Below, piece after piece: positions 373 to 63,447 of a DNA stretch of 64,000 bases. The notes beneath the pieces are model-generated. The model ran no database searches, had not been told where the DNA came from, and worked only from the letters and a program-made list of their open reading frames with translations. The stretch comes from Cystobasidiomycetes sp. EMM_F5. Taxonomy: Eukaryota. Both the position numbers and the translations under genes were made by a program. Positions within the stretch are counted from its first letter, which is position 1. The number at the start of each line of letters is the position of its first letter. Location: contig JBPGPT010000025.1 of NCBI GenBank assembly GCA_051047955.1, positions 62,001 through 126,000 on the forward strand, written 5' to 3'.

Positions 373-941
373 GATTGAAAATCAAGCGCAGTGGCTTGTT
401 GCACTGGCCGCTCAGCGCCGCCGTGGAGATGGCAAACGCAACCTCAATGCCTGCATTGCGTGTATGCCGCGAAGCACTGCATGTGCTCGGTCGTGTGGCA
501 CCGACTCTAGCTCAAGCTCCTGCTGCATACGCTGCGCGCACACATGGATTGGGATATTTCGTGCAGGTACGCGTGCAGGCATGCATGCTCTGAACCAGCT
601 GCGTTGGCTGTCTGCAACTCGGCAGCGAGTCAAGTGGAAGTGACACTACGACTGGCGGGCTGCGGTCAGAGTCATTACTGGGATGTCTTGCATACTGCCA
701 TCGGATGCATATCTTCCAGAGTGGATTGGATTACCGCGGGCGCTACCTGCTGCGTTACCAATGGTGCAGAGTAGGCTTACTGTGTGACGCAGCCTTGTCT
801 CGGTCGTCTATTGTAAAATGTTGTAATTCAATAACAATTTCGACTGTTTGAACTCTCATCTTTACCTCTTGCAAACCAACAATCAGAGTATCCAGGCCAT
901 TCGATGCGGCCAGCCAGCAGCTGCGAGTGACTGTTGTCCGC

Positions 942-25568: not shown

Positions 25569-26015
25569 TTAATTGGTCTTGTGACCGGTGAGCTTGTCCT
25601 TGGCTGCTTCTGCCTTTTGGGCGAGGTAATCTGGCGGCATGGGAGCGAGTAAGATTTGAGAATAAATTGCATGGGGCGAAAAGAATGACCACTGACCAAC
25701 GTTGGGGACGCCGCCAGTTTGGGAAATGGGAGCTACGCCCTGCGGGTCATTTTGCTTGTTGAAGTGTCCTTCAATTTCGCGGCTGAAGTAGGGCCACGAG
25801 AACGTCAGAACGTGACGCGACTGGCTGAAACACGCGGGCAGCTGAACTCACACAGTCGTGCCCGGCTGGAAGAGGCCAGACCCGGTGACCCTCTCGGTAC
25901 TGCAGCACAATTGAAAGACATTAGACGGCGCCTCTTTCCAACCAACTCGACTGCGGTGAGTTCCTCACCCCGAAGACACATTGCTGCCGGTGTTGGTGTT
26001 CGTGGTAGATGACAT
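25569..26015 (-). CDS. Small (~80 aa) four-exon hydrophilin-like protein, paralogue of the N-terminus of the adjacent gene
   Basis: Splicing three canonical GT-AG introns gives MSSTTNTNTGSNVSSGTERVTGSGLFQPGTTVREIEGHFNKQNDPQGVAPISQTGGVPNVDYLAQKAEAAKDKLTGHKTN*. Supported by alignment with the neighbouring gene and shared intron positions. Confidence 0.75.
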
Positions 26016-26366
26016 GGCGGAGTACTTGTGGATTGCTGAATACGTTTCTGAAAAGAGCAAAGCAAAGACGCGCAGACAAGAATCCAATTGTGAAGACAAC
26101 TCGCTGATGATGCAATAGCCCCATATAGTTTGCCACTCGGTCGGCGATCCTTTCGCAACTGCGACAATCATGCAAAATGCATTGAAACAAGGGCATGACT
26201 GTCGGTCTTCATGCGGAGATGCGTCGTGCTATGCAAAGTCTGGCATGCAAGTCATCAAAGCGTCGGGAAATGCGCGCACGTCGTGTGTACAGTGCGTAAG
26301 AAGCTTTACAGGCTAATCTGGTTTGGAATTGGTTGATACAGGACTATACGAGATCACCATCTCAGA

Positions 26367-30066: not shown

Positions 30067-31464
30067 TCACCACGTCAACCTCGTCTGATTCCCCTCAAAT
30101 GTCGACTGCAGCCAGTGGAGCAGCTCGCCGATGAGGAGACCGTTGGAATACTTGCCCAAGATTTCCTTGCCGTCACCCCACCAGTGCGAAATGTAAGCAC
30201 CTTGGCACACATTTTCCAATTCATTTGGGTTGTCTGGCCACCCGTTCGCATCCACGCATGGTACAATGACGAGTTCTTCTCCTTCCTTTAGCGTTGGGCG
30301 CACGTAGCGGTTGAAGGCGCCCTGTTCGTGCGGCCACTCCCACGAGAAACGCTCGCGGCATCCTGGAACTATCGGTATGGCTGCTCAGCCGCTGTCACGA
30401 TAGTAAACACGTATTAGGTTTCCTCACAGTGATCAAAGCAGTTCCAGATTTGATCAATAACTTTGAGCGTCGTAGGTGTATTGCGAAAGAGCATGAATCC
30501 AGTCTACCGTACCGCTCATCAGCTAACTACCATTTGTGCACTGAATGTCATCGACTTGCATTGGTCGCGTTGATATTGCCCTCTTCGTTCAGTGGTATGT
30601 CCATTGCCAAGGCCATACTTGCACGGTCGTGGAAACCGAAATGCTTCATCAATTCGAACAAACTATATTGCGGATGGCTTATTACTGTAGGCAAGTCATG
30701 TCGGAATCTGATGATGGATTGACGGGTAACATGTCACACGCACCTGCATCCCCGTCGAGAAAGACGACATATTCGCAGGTCTCGAGGGACTTGCCAATCG
30801 CCGGGAACTTCTGCCAGGTTGACCACCGATCTGTCATACTCTCCCAAGTCCATCTTTGGAAGCGATAGCCATGTCGGAGCGCCCAAAACATGTTGTGATA
30901 CACTGCCGCATCATAGTATTCAATCTCGGTCGCTGTTGGTGGCTCTCGATGATTTTGCTGCTCCAAGCTGTATGGGAAGGGAGTCATGGCACGCGTGTCT
31001 GACGACATGATGCACACTTGATCTGGCTTTGGCTCGCGGTACGATAATCCAGAAGGTAACGTTTTGACCTTGTCAGAAGGCATCTGCTGATTTGTCAATT
31101 GCCAAGCCTAGCAGGGCGATTTTATACAACGTCAACGCTGGATGAGCGTAATAAAGTGCGAGGCGCTCACCTTCTGGAAAGACACGAGTGGGTTTTCCGC
31201 TGCCGCTTCTCTGGCTGGCTGCCCATTCAGCGTGTAAGCATGACCGGACGCCCAGTTGATGACCAGAGCCGAAGTTGAGATTGTTGCAAGTGCCCACGGC
31301 AACAGAATCGTCGTCCATAGCAACTTCCGCCTCCTCTTGCTCTGCGTGTAGTCTCCTTCGAGGCCGCTTTTGCGGGTATCGTGAGTGAATGGCTGCTCGG
31401 AGCTTGAAGCTACCAAAGACTCCAGCTCGGTGCTGTCTGCTGCCTCGTCCTTGTACGCGGGCAT
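30067..31464 (-). CDS. GT34-like (GMA12/MNN10-type) glycosyltransferase, copy 1; 3' end approximate
   Basis: TM LLWTTILLPWALATISTSALVI; WALRHGY; RWSTWQKFP; EYVVFLDGDA (DxD); N|TGF; WPHEQGAFNRYVRP; PCVDANG; CQGAYISHWW. Confidence 0.78.
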
Positions 31465-31818
31465 CTCGGCATGGGACTGAGTGGATGACCACGAACCAGG
31501 AGATGGACTATAGAGCTATGTGCTTGTGCTTGCTATTGAGACGCAGTTGGGTGTATTGCAACAGACCTAAAGAGGTTTCCTCTAATCAGGGTCAATAAAT
31601 TGCCCCCTATTCTGGGCAGGGAGGCGCGTTGAAGAGCCTATACCAGGCCAACAGCAGTCCTGCGTATCGTCTCAAAGCAGCCTGGATCATGTTATGCGAC
31701 TATCCAGCTCAACATAAATATCGATATCGTTATCCGCTGCACGGACCCTCTGCTCCCCGTTGACCTCTAAGTGGGGGTGGCACATTCTGTTGACCCGGTG
31801 CCTGCTTCTTGTCTCGGG

Positions 31819-33213
31819 ATGGCCAACGGATACGAGATGGCGTACAGGCGCCCGTCTGCTCGTGCAAGTTACGAGCTTCTGCCCGGCGTCTCTGTCCCGT
31901 CACGGCGGTCGTCGCTGTGGTACGCCCTCCCGGCATTGGCTCTTGCGGCTGTTGTGCTCGGAGGTTTTTCCATCATAGACTGGAGCAGCGCTTCCAAGCA
32001 GTCGATAGAGACAGCGCCAGTCGCTGCCTTTGAAGCCATCTTCGCAAACGGCCTCAATCACAATGCCACATCTCCTTGGACAGACCCCGACAGCGGGATA
32101 ACCTACACGGCAAAGCATGCTCACTGGAGCAAACTAAACAAGAAGCGTGAGTACCGTTCTTGCAGTGTCTAATACTCTAGCAATCCCGTTCTCATTCAAT
32201 CCCATCAGTATGCATCGTCAACATTGATACACGGCCAATCACTTTGCCTTCATACGCCTCAACCTTACCGGAAGACTACTTCTCAGCGACAGCCTACTCA
32301 CACCTGCTGTATGCCTTGCGGCATGGCTACGCGTATCAGACAGTGCATGCGCCTCCTATGGAAGGCAGGTATCCAACATGGGTGAAAGGTCAGGAGTTGC
32401 TGTTGTGGACGTGAGAGCATAAACTGATTGTTCTCCACACTTTCCCAGTCCCGCACATCCGCAAACTATTGCGCGACTACGAACTGGTTGTATTCCTTGA
32501 TGGCGACGTGCAGATGAATCATCCCGAACTACCCATCGAATGGCTTCTGAATAGATGGGATTTCGCTCCTACATCCCTCATGGCGATGGCTGAAGATCCT
32601 ACATCCGATGACAACAGAGACAAGAATGGCAAAATCGCGCTCAATACCGGTTTCGTGGTTGTGCGCAACGACGCACGGTCCTTTCAGCTCTTGGATGAGC
32701 TCATCGCTTGTCCAGACGTGTTGCCAGGTTGTGAGGTGACTGCTCACGAGTGGTCTCACGAACAAAGAGCGTTCAGTATGTTGGCATCCATTGCCTCTGT
32801 TAAATTAACGAAGGCTGAAACTTTCCAACGCCAGGCGGCTTCATCCGTCCTTCCATGAGCGAGGGCCCTGGACAAGAATTGTAAGCTTATAAGTTGCCGA
32901 TACGTGCAGCAAGTGCTGATGATTCCACAGAGTTGTTGCGCCGTGTGCAGAGGCCAATGGCTACGAAGGGGAAACATGCGACGGAGTATTTGTCAAACAT
33001 CGGTGGTCCGCAAAGCATCAAACCACTGCTGCTATCCACAAGCAATTGCTAGGAACCATGTACTTCATGCTGGACGAGATGTAAGCGGTCTGTGCATTGA
33101 GCGAATGTCAAAAAATCCTTATATTTCGCTCTTCTAGTATGCGCGACGGGAATCATATCGCTGAAGAAGCCTCTAGCGAGCCTGCGGATTTAGATTTCGG
33201 CAGCGTAATCTGA
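31819..33213 (+). CDS. GT34-like glycosyltransferase, copy 2 (divergent from copy 1)
   Basis: TM LWYALPALALAAVVLGGF; YALRHGY; RYPTWVK; ELVVFLDGDV; LNTGF; WSHEQRAF; PCAEANG; CDGVFVKHRW. Confidence 0.8.
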
Positions 33214-33599
33214 AAGAGGCACTAGAGCAGCCGAGATTGAAGGGCCACGCCAACTGCTCAGCACGACGTAGGACTTATGGGGAGGGATACAGTGCGTAAT
33301 CAGTCAGGGACGTAGTGTCAGAGTCCAAATCATTTCGTCATTGTATCAATACAAGCAGTGTCATGCTGGCACCAGATTGAACATAGAATATACCGGAAGC
33401 AGGTCTCGTATGTAGGCACGTTTTGTGATGACCGTGGCCATGCACTGACACGTCTCATGTGGCTTTACTCAGACAGCTGTATCTGTCTGCTTTTCGGGCC
33501 GGAAAAAGCAAATGCCCAACAACAAGGGCTGAGCGATGCGTGATGAATTGAGACGTACACGACGAGCTTTGCATAGCTGTCTGAACGCGACACGCCCCT

Positions 33600-34993
33600 C
33601 TAATCGCGAGGGCTTGCCTTTCGCGCAACGAAAAGCTCTGCAGAATAGTATGCAACGTTAGTAAACCTAGCCTTTCGGTATCGTACAAGGGAACAACCTA
33701 CGCATAGGCGTGAAGAGCTTGGTGCGACCTCCTGCAACGAGAGCATCCGCAGCAATTTTGAGGGCTTCGCCGGTTGCATAGGTACCCTTTGGGAATAGAC
33801 CGACACGCTCGCCGGCCCACACTGTATTTTGTGTGACGATTTTGCCTAACCAAGTCATGCGCGCGACCATAACAATGTCCCAGAGCGTCTGGACTTTGCG
33901 AATGTCGCCTTCGAGTGGGTAGAACCAACGCTGTTCAAGATCGGGCAGTCTTTAAGCTTCGTAGCGCTCTGCGCTTCACCAATTTAACGCTCACAATCTC
34001 ATCGGGCCGTTCCGCCAAATCCTCATCGTGCAAGATTTCAAATCCGACCGAGTGCATGGCATCCCTAGCGTCTTTGATTGTTCGCATTTCCGGAATACCA
34101 TCGCCAAGTTCTATCCCATGGGCAATCTCGCGGTGCTTTGGGTTGCTCTTGTCGTATTCGTCCGTCATGCACCACTCGTATACTCCAAACTGAGGGCGGG
34201 GAAAGGTTCATCAGTACACATCACAGCACCGTGAGGTGCATTGACTTACGATACCGCCTGGCTTCAGTACTCTTCGAATTTGCTCGTATATGCCCGCAAA
34301 TGACGGGGCGTGTACAGTCGCTTCGATGGCGTATACTGCATCAAACGAGTTTTCTCCGAAATGCTCGGCTAAGTGCATAAAGTCGCCCTTGACAAAGTCG
34401 ACCAGGTCGGACAAGCCTGCCTTTGCAGTGTACTTTGTCGCTCGGTCCACCTGGAAGGCATTGTTGTTGACTCCGGTAATATGAGCACCGCTGAAACGGG
34501 CAATCTCGCGCGCGGGACCTCCGACACCACACCCTACATCCAGGACCCGCATTCCTGGCTTGAGGCCCATCTGAGCGCTCAGATAGTGCTCGTGCCTAGC
34601 AATGGCTTGATAGAAGGATTCGCCCTTGTAGTATCTGAATTCTGTAATCAGCGCGTCCGTAGCTGTCAACTCTGAGCATACACCCACCTGGCAAAGTGAA
34701 AAGAAGTTCCCCAGCCGTATTCATAGAGTTCTGAAGAGGTCAACAATTTAGGCTGATAGACAGCCATCTGAGAACCGAGACCTGCCTGTCGCGCTGTCGT
34801 AATATCCATTGACGACGTCGGTGTAGTTTTCGAGTCTGTGCTTCATCTGCTCGGCCGTGTCCTTTGACGAGTCGGCGTTCCAGTGCTTTGTGTAGTTTTC
34901 CATTCCCTTGCGGTTGCGAAGGTCGCCGTTGACCTTGAGCACCGTGCCATTGCCGTTGCTCAGACTGGAGCTGGAGCTCGGAGCATTCACCAT
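33600..34993 (-). CDS. ERG6: Sterol C-24 methyltransferase (3' end uncertain)
   Basis: [84 protein letters not shown]. Confidence 0.96.
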
Positions 34994-35142
34994 GGTTGCA
35001 GGACGGTCACTCGCCGTCTTTTTCGAGATGGGCTGAAGGCCAACCTGAGACAGTCGTTCGATGTTTTCTCAACTATTTTATGGATACAACGCAGCTCCAG
35101 CTCAAACGGACAACACGTCTAAGTAACTCATGTACTCTACAA

Positions 35143-37837
35143 CTATGCAACACTGATTGAATCACCATTGTACAAGCGGCTCCACTCGAGGGCCAGCCGA
35201 TAAGCGTACACCTTGGCCGCCTGTTCTCCCATGTACTGCCTTCCCCATTCGCGACCACGTTCGGCAATCGCTTGCAGGGCAGCGTCGTTTCCAATGTGAC
35301 GCTCGTACGACGTGGAAGAAGTCCCCGACTTTGATTGCCGCGTGACGGCCTTGAGCGACGAGGGCGAGCCTGTACTGCCAAAGAAGTAGGTCAAGATGCT
35401 GGAAAACTCGTCGTACTTGAGAGAAAGGGGAATGACATGGTACCATGCTGTTGATAATAGAATTATAATTGAATTTGTGAAAGTCACATCAGTCGCTACT
35501 TCTGATGATTAGATCCGGAAACCTACCCTGCAGGTGGTCTGCGAAATATTCCTTGTACAAGGACGACTTGACCACAGCGGCTCCACTCTCGAGCAGCGCG
35601 CTAAGGCGAGAGGAGTATGCGTTGCCTGCGTTATGATGTCGCAATCCAGTCAGTCAACGTGCCACAGAGCAGCCATTTCGGTATCGGAACCATCCAGAAC
35701 TCACCATCCAAATCCGCAGTCATCTTGACTTGGGCAAACTCTTGAACAACCCTGCCGCGGTTGATGCGGTACGTCGAATTATCGAGCAGGGCTTCGCATG
35801 TCGCAGCTTCTCCACAGCCCGTCAGGTCGTCAAATGCAACATCGAGGTGGTCCACGTTGGATGTTTGGTGGCCGTTGTCAGATAGTGCTCGAGATTCTGC
35901 GATGGAGTTGGCTAATGCAACGAAGCGCTGTCGCTGGTAATTGAGCTGGCGTCCAGACGGCCTGTTGCCACCACCGTCGGCTGTTCCGCGCCAGTATAGA
36001 CGTTCTGCCCGCTCAGCCCAGTCTAGAACAGGCTCTCTCTCAAAGACTCCTGGGAAATCACGGTGGTGGACTTGAGCAGATGTAGAATTAGCCAAATGAC
36101 TGTAACCCCGGCTCTGAAGAGGGCAGCGCTTACAATTTGGTATAAGAATATCGGAGAAGCCTGGGACGGTAGAGTGGGAGAAGACAGGATACAACGTGTC
36201 GATGATGCGCCAGTCCGAATAAAACAGGCCATGCTTTTGCAGATAATCCGAACCGCTGCACATTTGGGTCTCATCGACGGCCGCCAACGAGGTGAGGAAG
36301 CTCTTTCGAGCTTCCGCCTGCCTGGCGGCGACCTGCTGTGCGTATCGAAGGTGCGGTGCCGCTCGAATGCTCTTGATGGGCGCGAATGGATGGGTCACGT
36401 TTGCAGCATGGGAAGACGCAAGAGTGAAGTGTTTCACCCTGGTGTCAATGGACGCGAATGAGCGTCGCAAATTGGCAGAAGGATCACAGCTTCGGGCGTA
36501 GGCGTTGGCCGTCGTTTCGCCAGCACCCCAATCTGCGCGCGTGATTGGGCTGAACGGCGCATCTTGCTGATTGGTGTCTAGGTATACTGCAATACGGTGA
36601 AAATCGAAACCAAGAAAGACCATGAATTGAATTAGTAGCTGCTAACCTCTTTATATTCCGCTTCATCTGCGGATGTGGACTGCTGCTTACCTTCTGGATC
36701 GTGTTTTGCTTCCCACGACAGGAGAACCCGGGGATCTGCAATCTCATTGACGGCAAACGATACACCCTTATTTAGCCCTGGTCTCTCTTTTTCCTGCAAC
36801 AATTGTACGAGGAGTTGGCCAAGTGAGTACGCTCTCTTCTGCACAATGCCGACAGGAGGGCTCTGCACGCTGATTCTCTCTTCGGGTCGCAGCTGCTTGT
36901 AGCCTCTTCCGGCCTGGGGTAGCACATTGACAAGGGAGAATGACGGGGAACTCCCAATCTCGATTGTTCTGTATTGCAATTCAGAAGTTGATAACCGCCG
37001 GAAAGGATCAAGAGAATGCATGAGCGAGTCGTATTCGTCAACGAGTTCGATGCCTGATTCTGCATAGTCGATTGACGATGTCAGTGACGAGACAAGCTTG
37101 ATTTAGATGCAAAACATTCGCCGCGTACCTTTCGCATACTCAAACCACTCTTCGAACCCTTCTGGAGGCGCCATTTCATATCGTCGTATGTACTCCTGTA
37201 CCGCTTCCTCTGCAGTCTTACTTTGCTTTGCCACCTTTGCCTTCCACTGCTCGCTTGCAGTCACAATGATATCATCCAGCCTTGCAGCTTCTTCGGAAGT
37301 AAATTGACGAGGCTCTTTTCTAGGTAAACTAGTAGAAGTATGTTGGGAGGAAATTGGTCGAAGGTGCCAATCCCGGTCCAAAGCACGACCGGCGTATAGA
37401 TTGTAGGGAGCGGCCAGCTTGAGTAAAGCAAGGTAGGCCACAATGATGAGCGCCACGCAGGCGAATAGCCGCCTTGCTCTTGTCCGCGACCTTAGTGGAC
37501 GAGTCTTTGTGGATTTGGCATCGCTGACGCCATCGAATTGCTTTGAGACCCAATTTAACGACGAAGAAGGAATATCTGGAGTGGAAATCTTGTTGAAAGC
37601 CTTGCGATCCACATGGCGTTGCTTCTGCTTTTGCTGCTTAGACGATTGTTGCTGATAATGATGCTGGGCTGTGACGATGGCGCTCTGCCTGCGGGACAGG
37701 GCTCTGCCGTTTGCGAGAGGAAAGGACGATGCTACAGTGGGGTAGATGGCTATCGCTGGCGTTGTGGAATGCTTGGGCTGTGGAGAGGGTCCGTTCTCTG
37801 TGCTTTGCCACTGCGAACTATCGGCAGTAACCTGCAT
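35143..37837 (-). CDS. GT90 / CAP10-domain glycosyltransferase (Cxt1-like beta-1,2-xylosyltransferase family)
   Basis: TM LFACVALIIVAYLALL; YIRRYEMAPPEGFEEWFEYA; PVFSHSTVPGFSDILIP; LYWRGTADGG; DLDG|NAYSSR; WYHVIPL; YAYRLALEWSRL. Confidence 0.88.
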
Positions 37838-38565
37838 GGCTGAAGGAATCGATGGAGGTGAGCGATGATGATATTTAGGAGATGAAGCGAGAGTGCAGAG
37901 ATGATGCCAGCTTTTCTTTCTCTGTAGCAGACTGTGATTATCTGCAGGAATATTTAATCTCGCTGTGGCAGTTCCAAACTAGGCAGCATCCAGCTCCTGC
38001 AGCTGGCCAGTGTCAGTCCGGGCGTGAGCAGTGTCAGCTTTTCAGCAGTATTGGCGGCGTCGAGAACAGCGCATCAGTTTTCTTGCAAGTACATTAGCCC
38101 TCCTCATCGATATTCTGCCCTGCTCGTCAGCCTAGCTCCCGCATTTGCATCCGAGAGATTTTGCACCCGGAAAAGGCAATGGGCAGAGTATTTGACGATA
38201 GCGTCGTGATTACGGCGAAGCACTCGCAATGGATGGATGGCATTAGTATTCTGCGTAGCGTTGGATGCTACTGCGCACGCTATGGGAGGATCCGGTGGAG
38301 ACCTCAAATTTGTTGGTCGACGCGACGACGCGTATAGCATCATGGTGGAGATTGCGATGCTGACATTGGATGCCAACCAGGGTTTGTTGCATTGGGACTT
38401 GGATTGGCACATCGCACGTCCTAGCTATAGCTTGCCCCATTTCAGCCGGTCCATGAGTTACACGTTCAATTTGAGATTGGTCATCGATACAACAATACTG
38501 TCGCTATGGATACAGAGCTGGCACTAACTTGACGTATGTACTGCCTTCCAACGTTCGCATGGACT

Positions 38566-40248
38566 CTACGCGATCCGTGCCAGACTGGATCGATACATAG
38601 AGAGACTCCGTTTGTAGAGGGATTCTCGGAATGCTGCGAAATCTTCTGGCGAGCGTACCCAATCGTCCGGCGAACCACGCCTCAATTGCGTGATCATCTG
38701 CATCTCAGATACGCCCGGTGGTCGGTGAATCGTAACGCGTCCGTCTAGATAATCGTACGCGTCGAGCAGTTCGTCCGAAGCAAGAACAGGGACGTCAGCC
38801 AGCAAAGCCGCTGCAACGCTGGAGCTCTGCAAGATGAGAAATATTAGAGGAGTGAACAAGACAGTATCGTAAAAAATGACGTACAGCCTTGTCGACCAAG
38901 TACGTATCCGTAGCAAAAGCAGGGATGACAATGTCCTGGTCCGCTATCGCTTGATAAAAGTCGGCATACATTTCTTCCATCCCTCGGCGCACGACATGAA
39001 TGAGAGCTTGCGGCGTAAAGACTTCATGCCGATCCAGGCCCAATAGGGTGAGCTGGAAGCGATCGGTGCAGTCCGGCAATGGCAGGAAGGTCGTTCCATT
39101 CTCGCTCAGGTAGTATCCAAACAGTTCCGGATCGTCTGTGAGGAACACCAGTAGATCAGTATTGGAGTCCGAGATATAGGCTGTAACTGTGAAACCGACT
39201 TCGAATTTCACGCTCCAAAGCTGCGTATGTACCAGTGTAGTCTCGTCGACCATGCTCAATGTTGCCTTGGATGATGGCTCGACTGAGACGTGGTTTGTGT
39301 TCGGGCTTTTTCAGCTGTCCAACAGGGAAGACCGGGGGCAAGAAGTTGTATGCCGTCCGATCAGCAGGTGATCCTAGACGATTCGAGTTTGGCGAGCTTT
39401 GTTGAATGCCGGAGACGCGCCTCTTTACGGCATCGACAACGCTAGATGGTTGGACGGCCTCACATGTTAGTCTGAAGAGCAAATGCCCGATGGGGCAGCG
39501 AGTACGTACTGTGGGGAGAGGACATAAAAGTCTATTGCATTCCTCGAGGTCAGGTCTGACCAGATTGTTTGCCAATCCTCGCCATTTGGATCGATCTTGT
39601 AGGCCTCGTGCAGTACGCAACCGATCCTGAATTTGTGAGTGCGCTTTTCCCAACTATCCAAGATGTCCTTTCCTCTTCGTTCCAAGGTATAGTCGCACGA
39701 GGTGAGGACAAGCAGGTCTATTCTTGTAGCGGGATCCGACTCCTCGGCCAAATCAGCGGGCAAAGTTTCCCACCATTGGGCTTGTTGATGGAAGAACGGA
39801 TCGATGAGCTTGTCAAACTGCCATCGGAAGTTGTTTCTGTACAGCGAGATGCTGACCTCCGGCATGCGAGTGAGCGAGTGCAAAATCGCGCCGAGAACTG
39901 CGGGGACGGTACGGAGTGTCAAACTAATACAATGGAGCAATCACTAGACTTCTACTGACCTTCGTCATGATAGCCAGCATACTCAGATACGGCCACATTG
40001 AACTTTCGTAATGGGCTTGCCCGCCCCGAAAATGCTTTCGCCCACGCATGTCTGGGCAGATTTGTAATGCGTGCCAGTGAGGGCCGTACACTAGCGCTGA
40101 AAGTGTTACTGATAGGATGAGTAACACTTTGGACTTTTGGGGAGCCGATGAGATGTCCGGTGCCGTAGACCAATGAGCAGATCGCAAGTAGCCATATTGC
40201 CATGAAAGACCTTGTCGACGTTCCACGATGCTTCGAGTATCTACGCAT
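38566..40248 (-). CDS. Uncharacterised type II membrane protein, putative GT-B glycosyltransferase
   Basis: TM FMAIWLLAICSLVYG; EYAGYHDE|VLGAILHSL; IDLLVLTSC; CVLHE; FYVLSP; AIIQGNIEHGRRDY; DFYQAIADQDIVIPAF...KA|SSSVAAALLADVPVL, a GT-B-like C-terminal signature. Confidence 0.65.
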
Positions 40249-41190
40249 ATTGAGGCGTCGCAGACGTTTTCCAAGACGGTGTACTGTGTGAGAAGAAATG
40301 TTTACCAAAGGCAAGCGTGCAGCCTTTGGCCAGTAGCATAATGGCGCGAGCTCGTCGCGCTCGAAGTAGCCCACCATTGTTCAGGTGGGAGGAAGGGAGA
40401 GTCTAGGGAGAGTCTAAGGGCACTGCCCCCTGTATGAAAAGTTCGTCGCTGCGAAGCCATACTATAGCACGAGTCCGAGGACGGACAGCTTTAGTTATGC
40501 TTTGCCGTCCGCGGTAGGATGTAGTTTGCGCGTCGGCAGAGCAGGAGGGCGGCGCAGAATAGATGTCAGCCAAATGCGTCCAGACTAAGCGTGTTCTTGG
40601 TATGGATGTAACTGTCATGCAATTCCACGCAATAAAGAAAGTGGACCCGCATGGCGATGACCTGCCACAAGGGTGTAAATTGCAACTACCGGCACAGCCA
40701 AAATCGGCGTTAGCGAGGTTAGTGTTTGTAGCGAGGGAGCGAGTGCAGCAGTGTCCTATTAGTGTAGACGTAAGTATAATGAACTTGTACAGGTGTATTG
40801 AGCCCGCTATTGTCCGCTATTAACGGTGTAATGAACGGGTGTCGATTTGAAGTGGAAAACGCAGCTGGCGGAATAAACGAGCAGCTCGAGGATATGGCCA
40901 AGTATCAGCTGCACAGCGGCCTGTTAGTGAGCTGTAGCTCGAGTGAGCTGGGCCTCGCGTGGGGTTGCAGTTGAAAGAAATGTCGCGGAAGCAACGGGCC
41001 CGTCGGAGAATGATAGAAGCAAAGAGCAGGTTGCAAACAGAACCAGTCGATACATTACAGCAACTAATGTCCACTATACACTCTAAAACACTGATATGAT
41101 ACACTTGAGCGTCTAAACTACGGACGACTTGTACCCGCTATTCTTCGAAGTGTCGTCATGGATACATGAAAGATTACACACGCTCGCACG

Positions 41191-44100
41191 TCACGGCAGG
41201 TAACCCATCCCTGGCAGGGAGGTGCCAGGTGTAGAGGTCGAGATAGCTGCATTGTAGGCCTGAATCTCTGCAAGGCCCGCAACATAGATACCAGTAGCCA
41301 TAGTGGAGACGGTAAATCTAAGAGAAGTCGTAGTCTTGCCAGAAGATCCGAGACTGATAACGGTCCCCTGTTGAGACACAGCCGGCACTTGAATTGTACT
41401 GCCATCGGAGAAAGTCAGGTAGCCCGTCTTGATGCCGCCGCTAGTACCCTGTCGGTCATATAGAACGACGGATTGCATGGAGTAGCTAGAGGGAAAGGTC
41501 AATTGCACCCCTGCAAGTGTATTAAAGAGTGAGTAACCTGAAAGCGGAGATAGTGGTCACATCGACTCACATGCGCCCACACCTCCAATGCCGAAAACAG
41601 CCCATTCGCCTGTACCGCTGCGGATGACACCATCGTTGACACCACTTGCAGGTGCTCCGCTTCCGCTCGAAGAAGCAGACGCAGTACCGCGTCTGGCTAG
41701 ATTTGATGTCGCTGCTGGCGCTACTGAGCTGCTAGTTGTGCTGGAGGGGGAGGTGGATGTCGTTGATGGTCGTGAAGATGTGGAGGTTGTTGATGTCGTT
41801 GTTGGACGCATTGATGTGGAGGAAGCCGTTGTAGAGGGTGATTTTGTGGAGGAAACGCTGCTGCCGCTGCTTGCACTTGAAGGTGTCGTGCTAGTTGAGC
41901 TAGACGTGCTGGTAGGTGTACTTGCCGTGGAGGGCACAGAGGACGGCAGGGCTGACGTCGATATAGTCGAGGTGCTCAGTATAGCAGGAGCAGTCGAGCC
42001 GGAGCTTAAACTCGACGTTACGGCGGGTAACGAAGTCGACGAGCGGACGCTGGTGGCAAAACCTGAAGAAGTTGTGGAAGGTATGACTGGCAAAGTACTG
42101 CCAGTCGATGTATTCTGAGACACTTGCATACTAGTCGGCGCAATACTCGATGAGTTTTGAATCGAAGGTACTGTGGTATTGGCAGCAATGCTCCAGCTAG
42201 ATGTTACAGTCGCAGTAAAGTTGCTGATAACGCTCGTAGTCCTGTTAGCAAACGGTGGCGCAGTCGAGTTGGCCATGCTGTACGTAGATGTGATTGTTGC
42301 CGTAGCAGTAGTACTCGAATTAGAGACTGACAATGTGGTAGCATTCGGGAAAGTAGTATTCGAGGTGATCGTAGTCGTAGAGTTAGCCAGACCGGTAGGC
42401 AAGGAGGTGGTGTTTGTTGGCAGACTTGTAGGTGATGAGGTATTGGCAGTGGCCGTTGCATTATTCGCCAAAGTGTTATTGATGGCGGCAGGTAAAGCTC
42501 TGAGAAATCGTGCAAGTTGTATGATATTGTTAGCGCTGTGAGCCTTAGCTACAGCTATAGAAATCCAACGTACGGCGTATAGGTTCCCATGACAACTAGC
42601 TCACTTAATCCAATATTATTAGAACTGGACGAAACAGAGTTGACGGTAAAGCGCAAAGATGTCGTGGTGATGTTGCCAGGCAAGGCGACAGGCGTAGCTG
42701 AACCGTCGTTGGCCAGTGTACCGACAGGCACAGACTGACCATTGCTGAATGTCATTGTTCCGCTAGTAATTTGATCCTGATATCAATCGGCAGCGTCTCA
42801 GTCAGTCCGTGTATCACAAGCGCTTAGACCAGTGACTCACATATGGATTCGGCCGATCGTACGCGATGACGCTTGATACGACCACGCTTTGATTCCAGGT
42901 GAGTAGAAGGTAGGCTCCGGCTCCCTGCTTGTTGGTTGCCCATTCGACTGTATAATTACCCGGATAGCCGCCGAGTACACCATCGGTAGCCTTCTCTGCG
43001 CCTTGATCGACAGAGCTAGAGCTGGCAGACGCGGCCGCTAATCTCGCTAGGTCGCCATAGAAGATCGGGGTGGATGTGCTATTGGTGTTACTGGTACTGT
43101 TAGTGGTGCTGCCAGTGGTGCTGTTGGTAGTCGAGTTGCTGCTAGGCGCAGGAAGCGTGCTATTTGTAGACGCACTGCGAAGCCGGGCGCTAGGAGTTAG
43201 TATGTAATTTTGTCTCCTCACGCTATGGCTCCAACAAATTACCTTGTAAATGTGCCCATCACCACCAACTCGCTCAGACCAACATTTTGCGTTGACGACG
43301 AGACGGAATTGACCGCAAAGCGCAAGGACGATGTGGTGATATTGCCTGGCAAAGCTACTGGGGTGGCGGATCCATCGTTTGCTAAAGAACCGACTGGGAT
43401 GCTTTGCCCATTGCTAAATGTGATGGTACCGCTGGTCACTTGATCCTGGAATTGACAAAGGTCAGCAGGTCAAACTATGCAAAGATTGCGTTCCGACAAC
43501 TCGCCAGTTGATTGGGCCTATCATACGCAGATATGCTTGAAATTACCACGCTCTGGTTCCAGGAGAGCAAAAGATAAGCGCCAGCACCTTCTTTCTGTGA
43601 CGCCCATTCTAGTGTGTAATTCCCCGGATACCCGCCTATTTGGCCATCAATCGCCTTTTGAGCACCTTGATCCGGGCTGCTCGAACTAGCGGAGGCGGAA
43701 GCGAGTAACGCCAAGTCACCATAGAATACAGGCACGGACGGGCTTGTACTGTTGCTAGTCGTCGTACTGTTACCAGTGGTAGTTCCGTTGACATATGTAC
43801 CATTGTTGGCGGTCCCATTATTTACCAGGCTGAGTACAGTAGCTAATAAGCTTCACATCATCAGAAGATCGAACCTCGAGCGCTTGCCTGACAAAAGAAC
43901 CCATAACCACCAACTCGCTCAAGCCAACATTTTCGGTCGTAGAGGAGACCGAATTAACGGCGAAACGCATAGATTTCGTTGTAACATTTGGGGGGAAGAT
44001 AATCGGCGTGGCAGACCCGTCGTTATTGAGCTGGCCGACTGCTACTGTCTGCCCATTGTCAAGAATGAGACTGCCGCTGAGGACCTGATCCTGCAGACGT

Positions 44101-46120
44101 TCAATGCTGGTACATCAGTAATGCATTCAGACAATCTTTGGCCTCTGACTTGCCAGATTGTTAGGCCTGTCGTAGGCAGTGACGGAGGAAATGGACACGC
44201 TTTGATTCCACGTTAATTGGACCCACGCTCCAGCACCCTGCTTGCTGCTCGCCCATTCTTGAGTATAATTTCCAGGATATCCACCGATGAGACCATCGTT
44301 CACTTTTGCGGCACCCTGACCGTCTCCAGCGGAGCTCGCTGACGCGGCAGCATACAGAGCGATATCGCCATACCAAGCCGGAACAACAGAGCTGGTCGAG
44401 CTGTTAGTAGTAGGATTAGTGCCGGTACCGCTCGATCCGCCAGTACCGATAGGCGAGCCCGTGCTATTGGTTGTGGGTGTGCTTGCATTACCAGCTATGG
44501 TACCAATAACCACAATTTCCGATAGTCCAATGTTGTAAGTATTGCTGCTAACTGATCCAACAGTGAAACGAAGGGACGAGGTAGTTTTGTTGCCCACGTT
44601 GATGGAGAACCCAGTCTGTCCATCGTTCGGCAGAGTGCCAACCGCTACCGACGACCCATCGTCAAATGTCAAGGTTCCAGACGTGACTTGGTCCTGTGCA
44701 GTAAAACCATTTCAATCACGTAGGCATCAGTCATTATAATCAGTAGGGCTTACATCAGGATTCGGGCGATCGTATAGTGTGATGAAGTTGACTGCTACGG
44801 GTTGCGACCAGTTAAGATTCAGCCACGCTCCAGCGCCTTGATGGTTGGACGACCATTCCTTGCTCGGATCGCCTCCGGCATTGGTAAAGCCGCCGATAAC
44901 AGCGTCAATAGCAGCAGATGCTGGTTGGCCTTGTGCTGCCGAGCTTGCTGTTGCAGTTGCCAGCAATGCCAGATCGTTACTCCAGGATGAATGGGGTACG
45001 GTTGTCGAATTGTTGGAATCGCTGTCAATGACACTTCCGGTCAGTACTTGTGCAGGGAAAATACGGTGATCTATGCGCGAGGGCAACCTACTTGCTGACA
45101 TAGGAGCCCAGCACAACCAGTTCGCTCAATCCAATACTTGTCGTTGATGACGAAACTGAAGTGACTGTCAAGCGTAAAGATGTTGCTGTGATGTTGGAAG
45201 GCAGATTGACCGAAGTAGCCGAGCCATCTTGTATGAGGGGTCCAGTTGAAAACGTTTGACCAGTGTTCAGCTTTATTGTAGCACCTGTAATCTGATTCTG
45301 GTGACACGTGGATAGTCAGTCGTGTTGACGAATGCCGCTTTGTAAGCTCGCTTACTACTGTGCTCGGGCGGTCGTAAGCCAAAATGTTGGATATCTGTAC
45401 GGCTGAAGGCCAGCTCAGCTCTATCCAAGCACCCACTCCTTCACCATTTGTAATCCACTCGACTGTAGGATCTCCGCCAGTTGCATTTTGACCTCCAAGC
45501 TGTCCATCGATGGCCTTCTCGGGTCCAGATCCAGCAATTGATGAACTAGCCTTGGCAGATGCCAAAAGGGCAATGTCATTCACCCATAAGAAAGATGTAC
45601 TGGAATTTCCAGTAGAATTAGGCATCGTCGCATTGGCTAGGGTTCCGAGTACTGCAACTTCGGCTAGACCGATATTCACAGTTTTGGCAGACACCTTGTT
45701 GAAATTGACTTTGATGGATGCGGTTGTCTTGTTACCGATCGGAATAGAGTATGCACCCGCTGAGTTGGGCAGTTGTCCGAAGGCTATGATGGAGGCGTCG
45801 TCGAATGCGACTGTGCCACCCACAGCGTTGTCCTGCAGATGCAAATTCAATCACGAGGAGTGCACGCAAAACTCAGAGATAAGGCTCTTACATTCAGATT
45901 TGGCCGATCGTACAGAATAATGTCCGTGATGCTGATCGGAGCAGGCCAGCTCATTTGCAGCCACGCCCCTACGCCTTGACCGTTAGACGCCCATTCTTTT
46001 GATGCGTCTCCTCCGATCCCCCCATACCCATCGACCACACCGTCTATCGTAGCTTTCGCCAATGAGCCCGTTGTTTCGGAGCTTGCGCTTATCGAAGAAT
46101 TCATGGCAATATCATTTGCA
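41191..46120 (-). repeat. Seven intragenic domain repeats: approx. 46120-45640, 45590-45095, 44990-44500, 44375-43890, 43730-43243, 43065-42573, 41705-41250
   Basis: Aligned by eye from the translated exons; repeats 4-6 are most similar (GGYPGNYT.EW; GSATPVALPGNITT.SLRF in 5 and 6). Confidence 0.85.
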
Positions 46121-47154
46121 GCGGACCAGGCGGGAGCAACGTTGGTTGAGAATGTTTGAGCAAGCTGTGGAGATGTCATGTACTGCCTTGCGAACCAGAG
46201 AGACTCCTGCTGCGACGAGCACGCAGACGCGCTTTGACACTCGTTTGAGTCGTAAGGGGTGTAAGCAAAGAATGTTGCAGATTTGGCCTGCGTCTGCGCA
46301 CTGCTGAGTGTAGCAGGAAAATTATCTAGTAGAAAACGGCCGCTTCAGATTGAATAGCTTGATCAAGGAGAATTGAAATCATCCTACTTATCGTATAGCC
46401 CATGAATCCTTCTAGTGAAGCAGACCCAGCGTACGTACCAACTAATTCTTGCGTGATGCGGCCAGTCGTCAAATGATCCGTGTGATCGCCACAGCCGTAG
46501 GAGCTAAGATAGTCGAGCGTGACCACATCTGAAGGCTTAGCGGCGGACATGACTGCAGCAATGGATTGTTTGAGAGCTGCGAGGGTATAGGTATTGCTGC
46601 CATCGAGACTGGTGACGGAGGACACGCCGCCTGTATACAGATTATACAGCGATTGAGAGCCAGTGAAGCCGCTTCCATCGACGTTTCCGTCCGGTATTCG
46701 AAGGTAGATATTTTGGATCCTAGGGGACGCGTTGAGGACTGAAATGACGGCATTCGCACTCCCCAATTGTATTGTCGAGCGGGCTGCGAAGGCGGATTAT
46801 TTCATCGTAAAAGTCAGCTTCCGGGCCCTCTTAGGCTAGTGTTGCAAGCCTTTACTCACTCCAAGCGTTTGTCACGCCGGCCATCTGGGCTTTAGCAGCC
46901 TCGTTGCCCTGTTCGCGACTTTGCGTATACGACATCCCTCTCCCCGCATCTCCAGCGACCAGGATAAGTGTCGTGAAGCAACCCGACTGAACGCGAGGAG
47001 CGATATATGGCGATTGGAAGAGAATGTCATCGTCCGCGTGTGCGACTATCGAGAGCGTTCCGCCGATACATGCCAGACTGGCAGCTTCTAGCCCTACGAA
47101 GGCGGTTGTTGCGAGGGTGAGCGATTGCAAGCAGATCCGAGTTGACCACTTCAT
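41191..47154 (-). CDS. Large secreted PIG-L/LmbE-family (CE14-like) de-N-acetylase with seven galactose-binding-like (F5/8C/CBM32-like) repeats and a Ser/Thr-rich stalk
   Basis: Signal peptide MKWSTRICLQSLTLATTAFVGLEA; PIG-L motifs SIVAHADDD, LVAGDAG, SREQG, LRIPDG, DHTDH; then ~130 aa repeats (D(L/I)A..A.ASASS...AIDG..GG.....EW....G.GAW..L.W......YDRPN|DQ..SG...F..G...L.NDG...GLSE..V.G). Confidence 0.85.
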
Positions 47155-48815
47155 TTCGAAAGACTGCCGGAGAGGAAACGTCTGTGTGTAGCTTGCTAGA
47201 TGGCGATTGTTTGTCTTAGCAGCGGGTCATTAATCGTCATTCAAACGCAGGTTTCAGTCATCAGTTTCAGACAAGGTAAGCAGTGAGCGGGCACAAGTCT
47301 CGTCAGGAGTTCAGCAGACTTTACTCCTTGCATTGTCAGGCCCATCAGGGCAGCCGCACTAATCTTTTTTTTGTTGGCCTTGCACAGCCAGACCGCACCA
47401 TCCTGGGCTACGCCGAGCCGGTTTTATCGCACCTGAAGACCTGCACGCAAGCTCTGGGTGCTGCCCAGTATAGCGCAGCTTGCTAGCCGCTTCATGTAGG
47501 GCAACCGCGGCACCTTGTGGGCGGCATGGTCAAATGCGTCCGAATGGGGGTATGCGTGGTTCGGATTTGTGTCCGGCGAAGAAATATAGAAGCAAGTTTT
47601 TAAAGTATACTGCAAGCGGATACGGATACGAAGGTTCTCGCATGCAGGCTACGAGTATAGTAGCATTGCTGTATAGACGACGCCGTGGTTGTTGGGCTAT
47701 TTTACATATAATCCTGCGAGTTTCTCCGCTCGCCAACGCCAACCAACACCTTCATGCTGACTCGTACGACCAGTATTTTCCCTTCACGTACCGCCAACAA
47801 GGGGCTTGCCGCATCATCGTGATGTGATCCTGTATTTTTCTCGCTTTACCGCTGTTATTTTTATGTTTGTTTGAGCCTTTAAAGAGTAACAAAAGACCAG
47901 AAAGGATGCCGTAGTCAGCAAGAACGCAGTTGGGTTCAATCTCCCTCATTCAAGGGACAAGCTGCTTCCATGCCGACGGAGGATGCAAATTCAGCTATGC
48001 AAGTGTCACGCTGGCGCTTCACTTTTATCAGTTCTACGGACGGTCTACAGACTGGTAATGGAGGGCACCTGGTATTCGACACGACGCAAGGCATGAGTCC
48101 ATCAGTCACTTTGGCTTCTCGTTTGTCAGAGTTAGCAAATTCACAAACAGCCCAGTGTCTTCGTCATAGCATGGCTGTTGGACTTGCGGAATCCATCAAT
48201 ATGTAAAGTAGTAAACAGAGGCCTAGCCTCGATGCAAAGACGCTGTCATAGTGGGGATAGTCTCTTCATGTTCACTGACCGTAGCATGGATATTGGGAAT
48301 AATACCCAGAAATGCGGGGCGCAAATCCTCGAAGCGCCCAGTCATGAACAGCGTTCAAAAAACACGTATAGTGAGTGATACGCAGCGTGTATGCCGGTCC
48401 GGGATACTGCAAACATAGAGACTACAAGGTTGACGCGCCTATATTGCATATCGCCGGATGCAGAATTTTCGAGTTTTTGCATTGCCCAATGTGGATACAT
48501 TAGGCGGTACAGCTCATAGCGCCGACATTGCCCTGCAGATAGTCACTAGGTCGGCTATGGTCAGTCTCACGTCGTGCAAACGCGCAGCGACTAGGCTGGT
48601 TGCCATTCAAGCGTATGCGGGATTGGCTCTGCAGCGAAGGTCTGGGTCAGGGTGACAGTATCGTGGCTTCAAGATTCCAGCCAGAAGGCTTTCCAGTATC
48701 GCAGAATTTAAGCACGCAGTGCTCTTCGCTACTACGTTGGCTGCGGTAGTCCTCGTCAAGATCCCTTCTCCATACGTTTCCCAAGGATACTCGGATCCGG
48801 TTGGAGCATATCAAA

Positions 48816-50023
48816 ATGGCAAGATATACTCCAATGCATAACTACGCGAATGGACAGCCAGAAGGTCGTAAACTACACCGGCATTCCCTTGTCATCATCC
48901 TTGCAGCCCTGGTACTGCTCTTGTTGGTCACAGGCTGCTTCCAGCCTAAAGCCATCTCCACGTTTGCCGAAACGCGTGCCAAAACGCATGCAGCGGGTCT
49001 AGCTAGCAAAGACCAGTCTAAGAATGCGTACGCGCAGTATGTAACCAACTCGTGAGTCCCAGCGTTTGTTTGCAGAGGAAATATCATCAAGACTGACAGC
49101 CTATTCGACAGGGTATACCTCTGCAACGCAATAGTCATGTTTACGCGTCTGCTACGATACGGAACAACCGCGCAATTGGCTCTGATGTACCCGAGAGAGT
49201 GGGACATCCTATCAGACGTAAATACTTTCCATCTGATGCGTTGAAGAAGCAGTCTGACCCGTATCGCATCTTGCAGAAAACCGATGAATCCCAACAGATA
49301 TCGCTTCTGATGGGTAAAGCGCGTGATATGGGGGTCCACTTCTACCCATTCGATGACATCTCTACGCCGGAAGCATTGTACTTCTACCTTCATGTCAACA
49401 ACAAGTTCAACGTGATGAACCTTACCCGTTACGACAGGGTCATCTACTTCGATTCGGATGCTCTACTCTACAAAAGTCTAGACAACTACTTTGACCTCCC
49501 TTCGTCTCCGCTTGCATTGACGCGAGCGTATTGGTACCCTCAGCCAAACTATATGACCTCTGCATTCATGGTCATTGAACCGTCCGAATTCCTCTTCAAC
49601 GCGGCGCTCTCTCGGCTACCCGGCGGAGCGGCGTTCAAAGAGGGAGTTGTCGAGGATATGGACATCATTCAGCATATGGCCGACGGATACGCTATGCTCA
49701 TACCGCATCGCCATCTGTTCCTTTTGTCAATGGAATTCCGTGATGGGCTAGGTGATTCGACGCACTCTAGATACCTGCGGAGTGCACAGTCTGGGCAAGA
49801 ATGGGATCCTGTTGAGGAATACAAACACGCAGGCATCATTCACTGGTCGGAGGGCGGGCCGAAGCCGTGGGAAGGCCGGTATCGCATGGATCCTCTGTGT
49901 GCGGGGCGGACGGACGCTGGATGCACAGTGTGGCGAAGTATTCTTGACGAATACTATGCAGAGACGGAGCAGATATGTCAGGTAGTCTATGCTGACCGGA
50001 CGGCCGAGCAGTTACGGACATAG
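48816..50023 (+). CDS. GT8 glycosyltransferase, GNT1-like (alpha-N-acetylglucosaminyltransferase-like)
   Basis: TM LVIILAALVLLLLVTG; AYAQYVTN|.YLCNAIVMF..L...ALMYP; KFNVMNLTRYDRVIYFDSDA; ALTRAYW; MVIEPS; DMDII; IHWSEGGPKPW. Confidence 0.85.
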
Positions 50024-61721: not shown

Positions 61722-63447
61722 TCAATCACTCCTTGCCCTTGCAAATATCCTCGGATTGTCGTACAGATCCGTGTGCCGGATCATGAAGACGATAGTGACG
61801 AAACAGAGGAGGCTGAGAATGACAAAGGTGACTGATTTGAGAAAGGCCGGCTCGGCGTAGATATCGGGAAGACGACCTTGCTCGCCGTCGACGAGCACGT
61901 CGCGAATTGCCCGCTCAAAGTTGCGTCCCAGAACAGGCAGGTCGAAGTGCGCTTTTACTCGGAGTTTCCCCTCTTCTCGGTACGCCTGCCGCGTATCTAC
62001 GTCGAGACCTACAAAGTATGCTATAGCATCTGCCCAAATCGCGGGTTGTGAGGCTCGGAGCAACCCGGTCTTGCCTTCCACAATCGTTTCGAGCGGGCCT
62101 CCAGAATTGCTAGCTATAATTGGGAGACCGCACCCCATAGCTTCTAGTGGCACGATACCCAAGTGCTCGAGCGAGGGAGTGTAGAGGAGGCATTTTGTGC
62201 TTTCGGCTTGCATCAGTGCCACTTTCTGCTTGTTGGACAGATTTGTGAGGAACAGGACCTGGACGTCGCTGCCTAGCGATGTGGTGGAGTGAGACAGACC
62301 GCGAACCTTGCAGATGCGTTGCAATTGTTGCAGTGTATCTACGCATGACTGGACACGCTCGTCGTAACCTCCGCCAATAATGAGCCGAGTATTTTCGGGT
62401 ATTGCCTTCCTTTCGAGCGCTATCGCAAACGCCTCGATGGCCAAAAGGACATTTTTCTTGGCTTCGAAGCGGTTGATAGATAGTAGAGTGGGTCGATTGC
62501 TGCTAGATGATTAGCATGCAGCATCTGGCAAGTTGCTTGCCTGTAATGTGAGCGGTAGCTTACCTTGCCAACTCATCGGCTTCGGCCGTGATGCCAAAAC
62601 TCTTTGCATCGATACCGGGGTACACGATTTGTAGCTGGCGATGTACTTGCGGAAAGACCGATTTGAACATTGTAGCAGTAAAGTTGGAATTGACCAGGAT
62701 ACGGTCAGCCTGTGCTGTTGCGCAGCGTTGTATGTTAGTTTGGCGTAAACGCAGCTGCATGACATCACCCCACAAGTCGTAGCCTCCTCGAGCGCGTCCA
62801 CTGGCACACGGTATGCCATCCTCAGTAGGCTCCTTCGCCCTTGCCCCACCACGCCGCCGTCAAAGCCGCTGCGACCCGGCGAGAGGAGGAGATCCGGAAA
62901 GTGGCAGTAAAAGACGACGCGGGTACGAGTAAACCATCGCAGGAGGGGAATGCACGCGGAAAGCTGGTCGACAACGTAAATGTCGGGCGGGGCAAAGCTT
63001 GCGGAGAACCAAGTCCTGTAGAGGAGGGTAAATGTGAGGTGGAGCTGCCGGAGGATGGCCAGCACGATATGGAAGCGGCCTCGGAGGGAGACTGGGAGAG
63101 CGTTGCCCAGGACCGTCACGCTCAGCGTTCCTGCGGTCAGATTGGGAGTAAATCAGCTGGCTTGCATACTCTTTCGCAACTTGGCTCACCGTCGTTGGTC
63201 TCCTCGAAACACCTCGACGGATCCCAATGGGACGTGTAGATGTCGACAGCATGCCCTAGATCCTGCAGACTGCACGCAGCATCGACGACGAGCCGCTCAG
63301 CTCCGCCTGGAGAATATGATAATCAGGAAATGGCCAGCAAGAACTCAGCAATGAGCCAGCTGAATATCCTTGGAAAGCTGCGACCAACGCACCGATACCC
63401 AGGTCGGGGTGGATCCAGCCTACTCGGAGCGGTCGCAGCTCCGACAT
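61722..63447 (-). CDS. ALG2: Alpha-1,3/1,6-mannosyltransferase Alg2 (GT4)
   Basis: [99 protein letters not shown]. Confidence 0.95.

Follow-up and report, generated by a model that had tools for sequence, protein, structure and literature searches.

Do seven neighboring genes, most of which encode glycan enzymes, form a biosynthetic pathway of their own, or are they one part of a larger gathering of such genes? The question arises from a 64,000-nt window of the genome of Cystobasidiomycetes sp. EMM_F5 (contig JBPGPT010000025.1, hereafter C168, positions 62001–126000), in which a sequence-only reading had seen a candidate cluster, genes A–G, for building a surface glycan and de-N-acetylating it outside the cell, by analogy with the galactosaminogalactan (GAG) cluster of Aspergillus. 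C168 is 222,785 nt long and one of 253 contigs in an 18.3-Mb assembly; it was read almost end to end, the block genes were modeled by their splice sites, and selected open reading frames (ORFs) were scanned against Pfam exon by exon. We find that the seven genes are the middle one of three blocks in a 110-kb island (C168:28–138 kb), where ~25 of ~44 genes encode glycan enzymes or candidate type II membrane proteins. The reading we favor, at a probability of roughly 0.55, is that this island provides side chains for a secreted or wall heteroglycan; it is carried by gene content, membrane topology, the folds and families of the products, a density in excess of chance, and paralog families that the blocks have in common.

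The seven-gene block

All seven spliced frames are intact, with introns of 49–104 nt bounded by GT-AG or GC-AG. In these gene models A, B, D, E, and G each carry one N-terminal hydrophobic segment, the pattern of type II Golgi proteins, and F begins with a signal-peptide-like segment; together with the families and folds given below, these features bear out the earlier claim that six of the seven genes encode secretory-pathway glycan enzymes. Gene C is, by its domains, a housekeeping interloper in the block.

Genes A and B stand head-to-head across a 354-nt spacer, both have a DGD motif, and their products are 30% identical (E 2e-43). The third exon of B is 100% identical to a database protein, P0170, which scores 23.8 bits against the Pfam model for glycosyltransferase (GT) family 34, just above the cut-off of 23, and found no match in a PDB sequence search; the nearest ESM Atlas clusters of B are likewise GT34 (score 0.96). 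At the sequence level both belong to GT34, B by its Pfam score and A via its identity to B. P0170 and P0001, the database counterpart of gene E, are both labeled as of the class Cystobasidiomycetes (Pucciniomycotina); their source locus numbers are three apart, which fits the placement of C and D between B and E. Gene D gave no match in the Pfam scan, and is 24–40% identical to six PF05686 loci of its own genome (best E 1e-28). The main exon of G scores 19.1 bits against PF01501, under the cut-off of 24.3, and matches GT8 structures in the PDB (best E 2e-4); a paralog at 43% lies on contig C210.

Long intergenic spacers had also been remarked upon in the block. The one between F and G, at 1661 nt, does exceed every other gap found in the window, but the remaining five measure 149–813 nt, and with one long spacer only we rejected spacer length as a mark of the cluster.

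The larger island

The flanks, previously taken for housekeeping genes, are so for the nearest five to eight genes, but more glycan-type genes stand at window positions 852–6017 and 61725–63255 (their limits being approximate) and past both window ends. Block I (C168:28–68 kb, that is, L044–L048 plus window 852–6017) comprises 17 genes and is denser than the seven-gene block. It holds a GH162-like gene, a homolog of secreted endo-beta-1,2-glucanases (E 1e-29), along with GT8, GT61, GT43, GT32, AA14, one GT25-like, two CAP64-like, and four family X genes. HemY and RLI1 genes, a primase, and a small gene are interspersed; in most block I genes the first exon encodes one hydrophobic segment. Block III (C168:123.7–138.3 kb; L049, L050) comprises seven genes: a GT4 gene, presumably ALG2-like, a nucleotide-sugar transporter (PF04142), three GT25-like genes, a DEAD helicase, and a paralog of E at 45–50% identity (C168:136.7–138 kb).

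Some of these labels need qualification. The GT25-like label rests on weak matches (Pfam E 0.03; tblastn E 1e-5 to a PF01755 gene). What we call CAP64-like is a resemblance that we assume, its one support being that the third paralog adjoins a CAP59 gene on contig C24. Family X consists of five type II membrane proteins with a common conserved C-terminal block; it found no match in Pfam or in a PDB sequence search, failed to match the E profile (probability 0.4%), and is possibly a new transferase family.

C168 holds the only GT61 gene, all four GT25-like genes, two of the three CAP64-like, four of the five family X and two of the five E-family genes, as well as the only DUF7402 gene, and its other 112 kb gave no GT match in Pfam. 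GT25-like, E, and GT8 genes each occur in more than one block, and such families in common suggest one region that was enlarged by duplication and broken by rearrangement.

Density against the genome

Genome-wide searches, with four genes added from neighborhood scans, gave at least 70 glycan loci, 20 of which lie inside these 110 kb of the 18.3 Mb. With same-family copies collapsed the count is 10 of 54 (union-bound p 2e-9, and 2e-3 at a fourfold background). In a conservative version restricted to tool-assigned families, from which the CAP64-like and GT25-like genes were dropped together with family X, whose GT status is unproven, it is 7 of 49 (p 2e-5). These values are to be read with a 110-kb window size chosen post hoc and several families searched because they are present in the island. 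The best 110-kb window elsewhere in the genome holds three families. The density of the island exceeds chance unless the GT content of the genome has been undercounted three- to fourfold; this supports the non-random clustering that had been proposed, in a cluster larger than was claimed.

Taken by itself, the seven-gene block reaches modest significance only: four GT families in 20 kb, with F uncounted, give p 0.001–0.002, rising to 0.02 (479 of 20,000 simulations) at double background. By gene order, with five of six consecutive genes counted as glycan genes, p is 1e-4 at a 2% background and 4e-3 at 4%.

Table 1. Features of the window and of related loci. Positions are those of the window unless a locus (L number) is given.
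Feature	Location	Strand	Details
Gene A, GT34-like type II membrane glycosyltransferase	30067..31464	-	379 aa, 5 exons, DGD motif
Gene B, GT34-family (PF05637) type II glycosyltransferase	31819..33213	+	368 aa, 6 exons
Gene C, sterol C24-methyltransferase (ERG6-like)	33600..34993	-	365 aa; PF08498 (Sterol_MT_C) E 2e-22, plus methyltransferase domains
Gene D, GT90/CAP10-like type II protein	35143..37837	-	up to 766 aa, 6 exons
Gene E, predicted type II GT-B-fold glycosyltransferase	38566..40377	-	519 aa; 476 aa from second Met = P0001
Gene F, secreted PIG-L/LmbE deacetylase-domain protein	41191..47154	-	1717 aa, 14 exons
Gene G, GT8-like type II glycosyltransferase	48816..50023	+	362 aa, DSD motif; divergent from F across 1661 nt
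CAP64-like (presumed) type II membrane protein, tail of block I	852..3141	+	three-member family; no Pfam match
Family X type II membrane protein, tail of block I	3542..6017	+	no Pfam, PDB, or profile match
Family X copies	window 3542-6017; L046:7834-9949; L047:753-4945; L098:9336-9994		C-terminal block
GT4 gene, start of block III	61725..63255	-	PF00534 E 2e-26
GC-AG intron sites	window 30559-30504, 34785, 45095, 44153, 43887, 43504		splice-site models
Microbotryomycete-like loci with transferase-like gene beside PIG-L/DUF7402 gene	L125:1337-14227; L120:154-14338		

Gene E and its family

Gene E is 100% identical to database protein P0001 and has 345 homologs at E<=0.001 among 1.84 billion representatives; 20 of their clusters were looked up, and the 13 that carry an organism name are from 12 basidiomycetes and one chytrid. 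Since folding from the single sequence gave a predicted local distance difference test score (pLDDT) of 39, an alignment-based AlphaFold model was used instead (110 aligned sequences, pLDDT 89). Its best structural match is BshA (Z 22.0, root-mean-square deviation 3.9, 333 residues aligned); nine further GT-B chains match at Z 19.4–21.8, with PimA at Z 21.8, and GT4-type structures match at Z 20–22. The model thus predicts a GT-B fold. As BshA, an alpha-N-acetylglucosamine (GlcNAc) transferase, and PimA, a mannosyltransferase, are tied, the donor sugar of E cannot be read from the structure.

Members of GT4 have an E-X7-E motif. At the corresponding site the consensus of the E family reads Lys-Ala-Ser-Ser-Ser, a conserved Glu pair being absent, and neither P0001 nor six of its homologs matches the GT4 model PF00534. 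By sequence and model, E is a member of a widespread uncharacterized fungal GT-B family that occurs beyond C168 too.

Gene F and its origin

The product of F begins with the signal-peptide-like segment, followed by a PIG-L/LmbE domain, six tandem DUF7402 repeats, a Ser/Thr-rich stalk, and a seventh DUF7402 repeat. The metal-binding motifs HADD (at 39) and DHTDH (at 198) are kept in the aligned fungal orthologs. Single exons score 21–25 bits against the PIG-L model, under the Pfam cut-off of 28.2, and the full-length ortholog P0005 scores 40 bits; a PDB sequence search with P0005 found no match. All 13 DUF7402 matches in the genome fall inside F. The repeats weakly match fucose-lectin and CBM32 structures (E 0.02–0.05), by which glycan binding by F is plausible.

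In a FastTree tree built from 25 PIG-L domains, the secreted proteins of fungi make up one clade (support 0.985), which adjoins intronless bacterial-type proteins and stands apart from the two GPI12-like genes of the genome, on contigs C13 and C215. By this grouping F does not appear to be a GPI12, and its PIG-L domain may be of old bacterial origin, as we infer from this small sample of 25 domains. One of the intronless PIG-L/DUF7402 proteins comes from an actinobacterial genome (L154). The relatives of F in bacteria stand mostly outside glycan loci; one (L117) adjoins YfhO, GT2, and acyltransferase genes, and reading the ORFs of L154, L115, L123, and L131 by eye rather than by Pfam scan, three of them on short contigs, turned up no recognizable glycan genes. 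As separate observations, the secreted bacterial-type proteins at L154:4602–8225, L115, and L123 represent a candidate source lineage for F; on C13, PIG-U, GT32, and the GPI12-like gene lie within 8 kb (C13:255300–263500; L136); and a short secreted-looking gene seems to be duplicated (L135:5144 and L136:2701). The PIG-L gene beside GT32 on C13 was considered as a second deacetylase cluster and rejected, for it reads as GPI12-like.

Could the island as a whole have arrived by horizontal transfer of a block, or be a chimera of the assembly? The grouping of F with bacterial-type rather than GPI12 proteins would suit such an origin, which we nevertheless regard as highly improbable. The GC content of the block is flat at 49–55%; the GC content at third codon positions of the seven genes (0.52–0.63) overlaps the 10th–90th percentile range of housekeeping genes (0.49–0.61) or lies slightly above it; all seven have introns; and the named relatives of E are fungal. 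Moreover, four of the six ortholog matches of F are named, all from Microbotryomycetes, so that any transfer would have been old and of a single gene.

Weighing the island

Several observations weigh against a functional island. Housekeeping-type genes lie between the blocks, ~8 between I and II and 4–5 between II and III, or 12–13 in total. About half of the island genes are local paralogs, many of them 30–67% identical. The conservative density test weakens to p 0.003, 0.04, and 0.25 at two-, three-, and fourfold backgrounds, and no promoter 6–7-mer is significant after correction for ~10,000 tests (best p 6e-5). Sixty stretches (~595 kb) surrounding glycan genes of other contigs showed only pairs, triples, and tandem arrays; these were covered by Pfam scans of the best-scoring ORFs (150, 150, 150, and 140), in which genes like A, D, and E are missed, with BLAST added, using island proteins for 40 stretches and the seven gene models for 20. 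Among 20 metagenome loci that encode F relatives, none of them Cystobasidiomycete, 11 under 5 kb and nine over 9 kb long, A, B, C, D, E, and G had no match. Finally, one exon of the transferase-like partner of F, which is described next, found no counterpart in this genome when used as query.

That partner differs from every gene of the block. In four of the 20 loci, from two lineages (L125/L126 at 68–69% GC and L120/L121 at 50%), the same type II transferase-like gene is the direct upstream neighbor of the PIG-L gene at ~3 kb, and is 61–80% identical between the lineages; L125 has, besides, a nucleotide-sugar transporter and a gene of GT47, a family for which no member was found in the genome under study. 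The neighbor is absent from L116, which is close to Rhodotorula protein P0006, and against the PDB it had two chance-level matches only. An HtrL/YibB label considered for this partner was dropped, no such Pfam match being found. L120 carries two PIG-L/DUF7402 genes in tandem. With a partner gene common to two lineages and A–E and G absent, what recurs is the linkage of a secreted PIG-L to a glycan-synthesis gene; the gene set does not recur.

Is the island, then, a plastic region that collects dispensable GT paralogs from unrelated pathways (N-glycans, glycolipids, wall), in which neighborhood has no functional meaning? The similarity of so many local paralogs fits this account, as do the tandem arrays elsewhere (five GT71 genes on contig C135, and GT32 and GT90 pairs, also on other contigs), the unconserved block order in the Microbotryomycete-like loci, and the interspersed ERG6, primase, HemY, RLI1, and DEAD helicase genes. 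Duplication, however, cannot account for 7–10 unrelated families coming together; the non-paralogous genes of the region are glycan or core housekeeping genes, with no transposon domain in the Pfam scans of C168; and all seven block models are intact. We consider this account unlikely, though it deserves to be taken seriously.

Under the favored side-chain reading, the transferases, mostly single-pass and of Golgi type, would supply the side chains of a heteroglycan that is secreted or part of the wall, probably a xylo-, galacto-, or glucurono-mannan resembling that of a capsule. The linked nucleotide-sugar transporter, together with UDP-xylose (UXS1, on contig C124) and GDP-fucose (GMD, on C113) pathways encoded elsewhere, would feed these Golgi enzymes. 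With CAP59 and CAS1 likewise on contigs other than C168, the genes for backbone and precursors lie outside the island, which is not a self-contained pathway. F, the GH162 glucanase, and the AA14 oxidase would be its secreted remodeling proteins. The island may have grown by local duplication and by relocation of unrelated glycan genes, have been broken up by rearrangements, with housekeeping genes left between its parts, and have been kept because its genes serve surface-glycan synthesis. The weakest step concerns F, which would be tethered to the glycan via its lectin-like repeats and deacetylate terminal alpha-GlcNAc, with G or E as the candidate transferase supplying it; given that fungal GT8 proteins of the Gnt type add GlcNAc to mannose side chains, the divergent neighbor G would be the natural supplier.

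A more elaborate form of the favored reading seems to us doubtful. In it, ~20 co-regulated side-chain transferases, families E and X included, would serve a Golgi-made capsule-like heteropolysaccharide in a true island; a GT8 or GT-B enzyme would cap its branches with alpha-GlcNAc; and a bacterially derived secreted PIG-L with seven lectin-like repeats would turn these into glucosamine and in this way adjust how charged and how adhesive the coat is.

Other observations

GC-AG introns are common, numbering 6 of 38 in the gene models; gene F has four of them. Two genes away from the block, at window 25572–27519 on the minus strand, lies a Thr/Gly/His-rich low-complexity protein, which bears a resemblance to stress or dehydrin-like proteins. 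Just past block III (C168:142300–148500; L050, L051), two PF00144 beta-lactamase-fold genes flank a DUF1254/DUF1214 gene. On other contigs, the GT71 (PF11051) genes form a tandem array of five (C135:11900–27700; L140, L141); a CAP64-like gene, a CAP59-family gene, and a chitin synthase adjoin (C24:297500–306000; L095, L096); and GT64, CAP59-family, and GT90 genes share a 21-kb stretch with two intervening DUF1996 genes (C35:259500–281000; L100, L101, L078).

Significance

Neither the island nor the secreted PIG-L/DUF7402 proteins are described in the literature searched, mostly the main text of openly accessible papers, which agrees with the earlier view that the cluster was undescribed; judged from sequence, the island is real and apparently new. 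Even for the core Cryptococcus capsule genes, biochemical roles are still undetermined (PMC10889740), and among fungal exopolysaccharide clusters the consulted passages of a 2026 review show GAG only (PMC13202872). The 7–10 unrelated glycan families in 110 kb offer guilt-by-association candidates for capsule or matrix synthesis in basidiomycetes, among them a GT-B family of 345 homologs without a Pfam model, and family X. For the de-N-acetylation of glycans in Pucciniomycotina, the secreted PIG-L/DUF7402 protein represents an unstudied candidate. If the reading as a co-regulated island is true, it would provide a ready list of missing capsule transferases and a second, independently assembled fungal route to a cationic surface glycan. 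Should the island be no more than a sink for duplicated genes, it is a curiosity of genome organization.

Comparison with known systems

GT4 transferases and PIG-L deacetylases work in pairs in PIG-A/PIG-L, MshA/MshB, and BshA/BshB. The locus resembles such pairs in that E, of GT-B type, stands directly downstream of F, and BshA and MshA are among its structural matches; it differs in that E is a lumenal type II protein without the GT4 Glu pair and F, a secreted protein, carries lectin-like repeats. GlcNAc, mannose, and glucose donors are not told apart by the structural scores of E.

A second comparison is with the fungal GT8 N-acetylglucosaminyltransferases ScGnt1, CcGnt1, and FoGnt2, which place GlcNAc on mannose side chains (PMC3886883). 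In the available part of that account, their genes are not reported beside a deacetylase. By features rather than by sequence, G is like them, with a similar length, one N-terminal membrane span, the DSD motif, and a weak GT8 score (PMC3886883).

The GAG cluster, uge3-gtb3-agd3-ega3-sph3, consists of five co-regulated genes, with a membrane synthase that polymerizes and extrudes, an epimerase, and a CE4-like deacetylase (PMC4817252). The analogy drawn earlier is a loose one. It holds insofar as both are linked fungal glycan genes that include a secreted de-N-acetylase and a glycoside hydrolase (PMC4817252). It fails in that none of the GAG gene families was detected at the locus. The block has no Gtb3-like polytopic membrane synthase; none of the genome's 11 PF16363 matches, the epimerase type of Uge3, falls on C168, and PF01370 is absent from its ORF scans; none of the selected C168 ORFs, scanned exon by exon, matches the Ega3 or Sph3 hydrolases (GH114, GH135); and where Agd3 is CE4-like, F is PIG-L/LmbE with DUF7402 repeats. 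The island also numbers ~25 genes, mostly single-pass type II, against five with a membrane synthase in GAG (PMC4817252).

Might the seven genes nonetheless be a self-contained GAG-like pathway, making one N-acetylhexosamine-containing polymer that becomes a cationic adhesive once F has deacetylated it extracellularly? In favor of this, F carries intact metal-binding motifs as well as a signal peptide, its repeats weakly resemble fucose lectins and CBM32, and it would be dispensable for glycosylphosphatidylinositol synthesis given the two GPI12-like genes; its divergent neighbor G is GT8-like and type II, and has the DSD motif seen in fungal Gnt proteins (PMC3886883); and BshA, an alpha-GlcNAc transferase, heads the structural matches of E in a tie with PimA, a mannosyltransferase. 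Yet the polytopic synthase, the epimerase, and a GH114 or GH135 hydrolase were not found at the locus, the block is neither delimited as a unit nor conserved, and its significance alone is modest. Moreover, the substrates known for PIG-L enzymes are small acceptors with a single alpha-GlcNAc residue rather than polymers. We hold such a pathway to be improbable; GAG-like working may be limited to the deacetylation step.

The capsule genes of Cryptococcus are largely dispersed over the genome. Those for its glucuronoxylomannan (GXM) and glucuronoxylomannogalactan (GXMGal) include CAP10, CAP59, CAP60, CAP64, CAS1, CAS3, and UXS1 (PMC10889740, PMC8355462), and a related Cystobasidiomycete is predicted to make a GXM-like glycan (PMC8355462). 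Compared by family rather than by gene orthology, the present genome is similarly equipped, with CAP10/GT90-like and CAP64-like genes in the island and homologs of CAP59, CAS1, and UXS1 in the genome. The difference is one of arrangement: with the latter three on other contigs, it is the candidate side-chain enzymes that are here gathered together.

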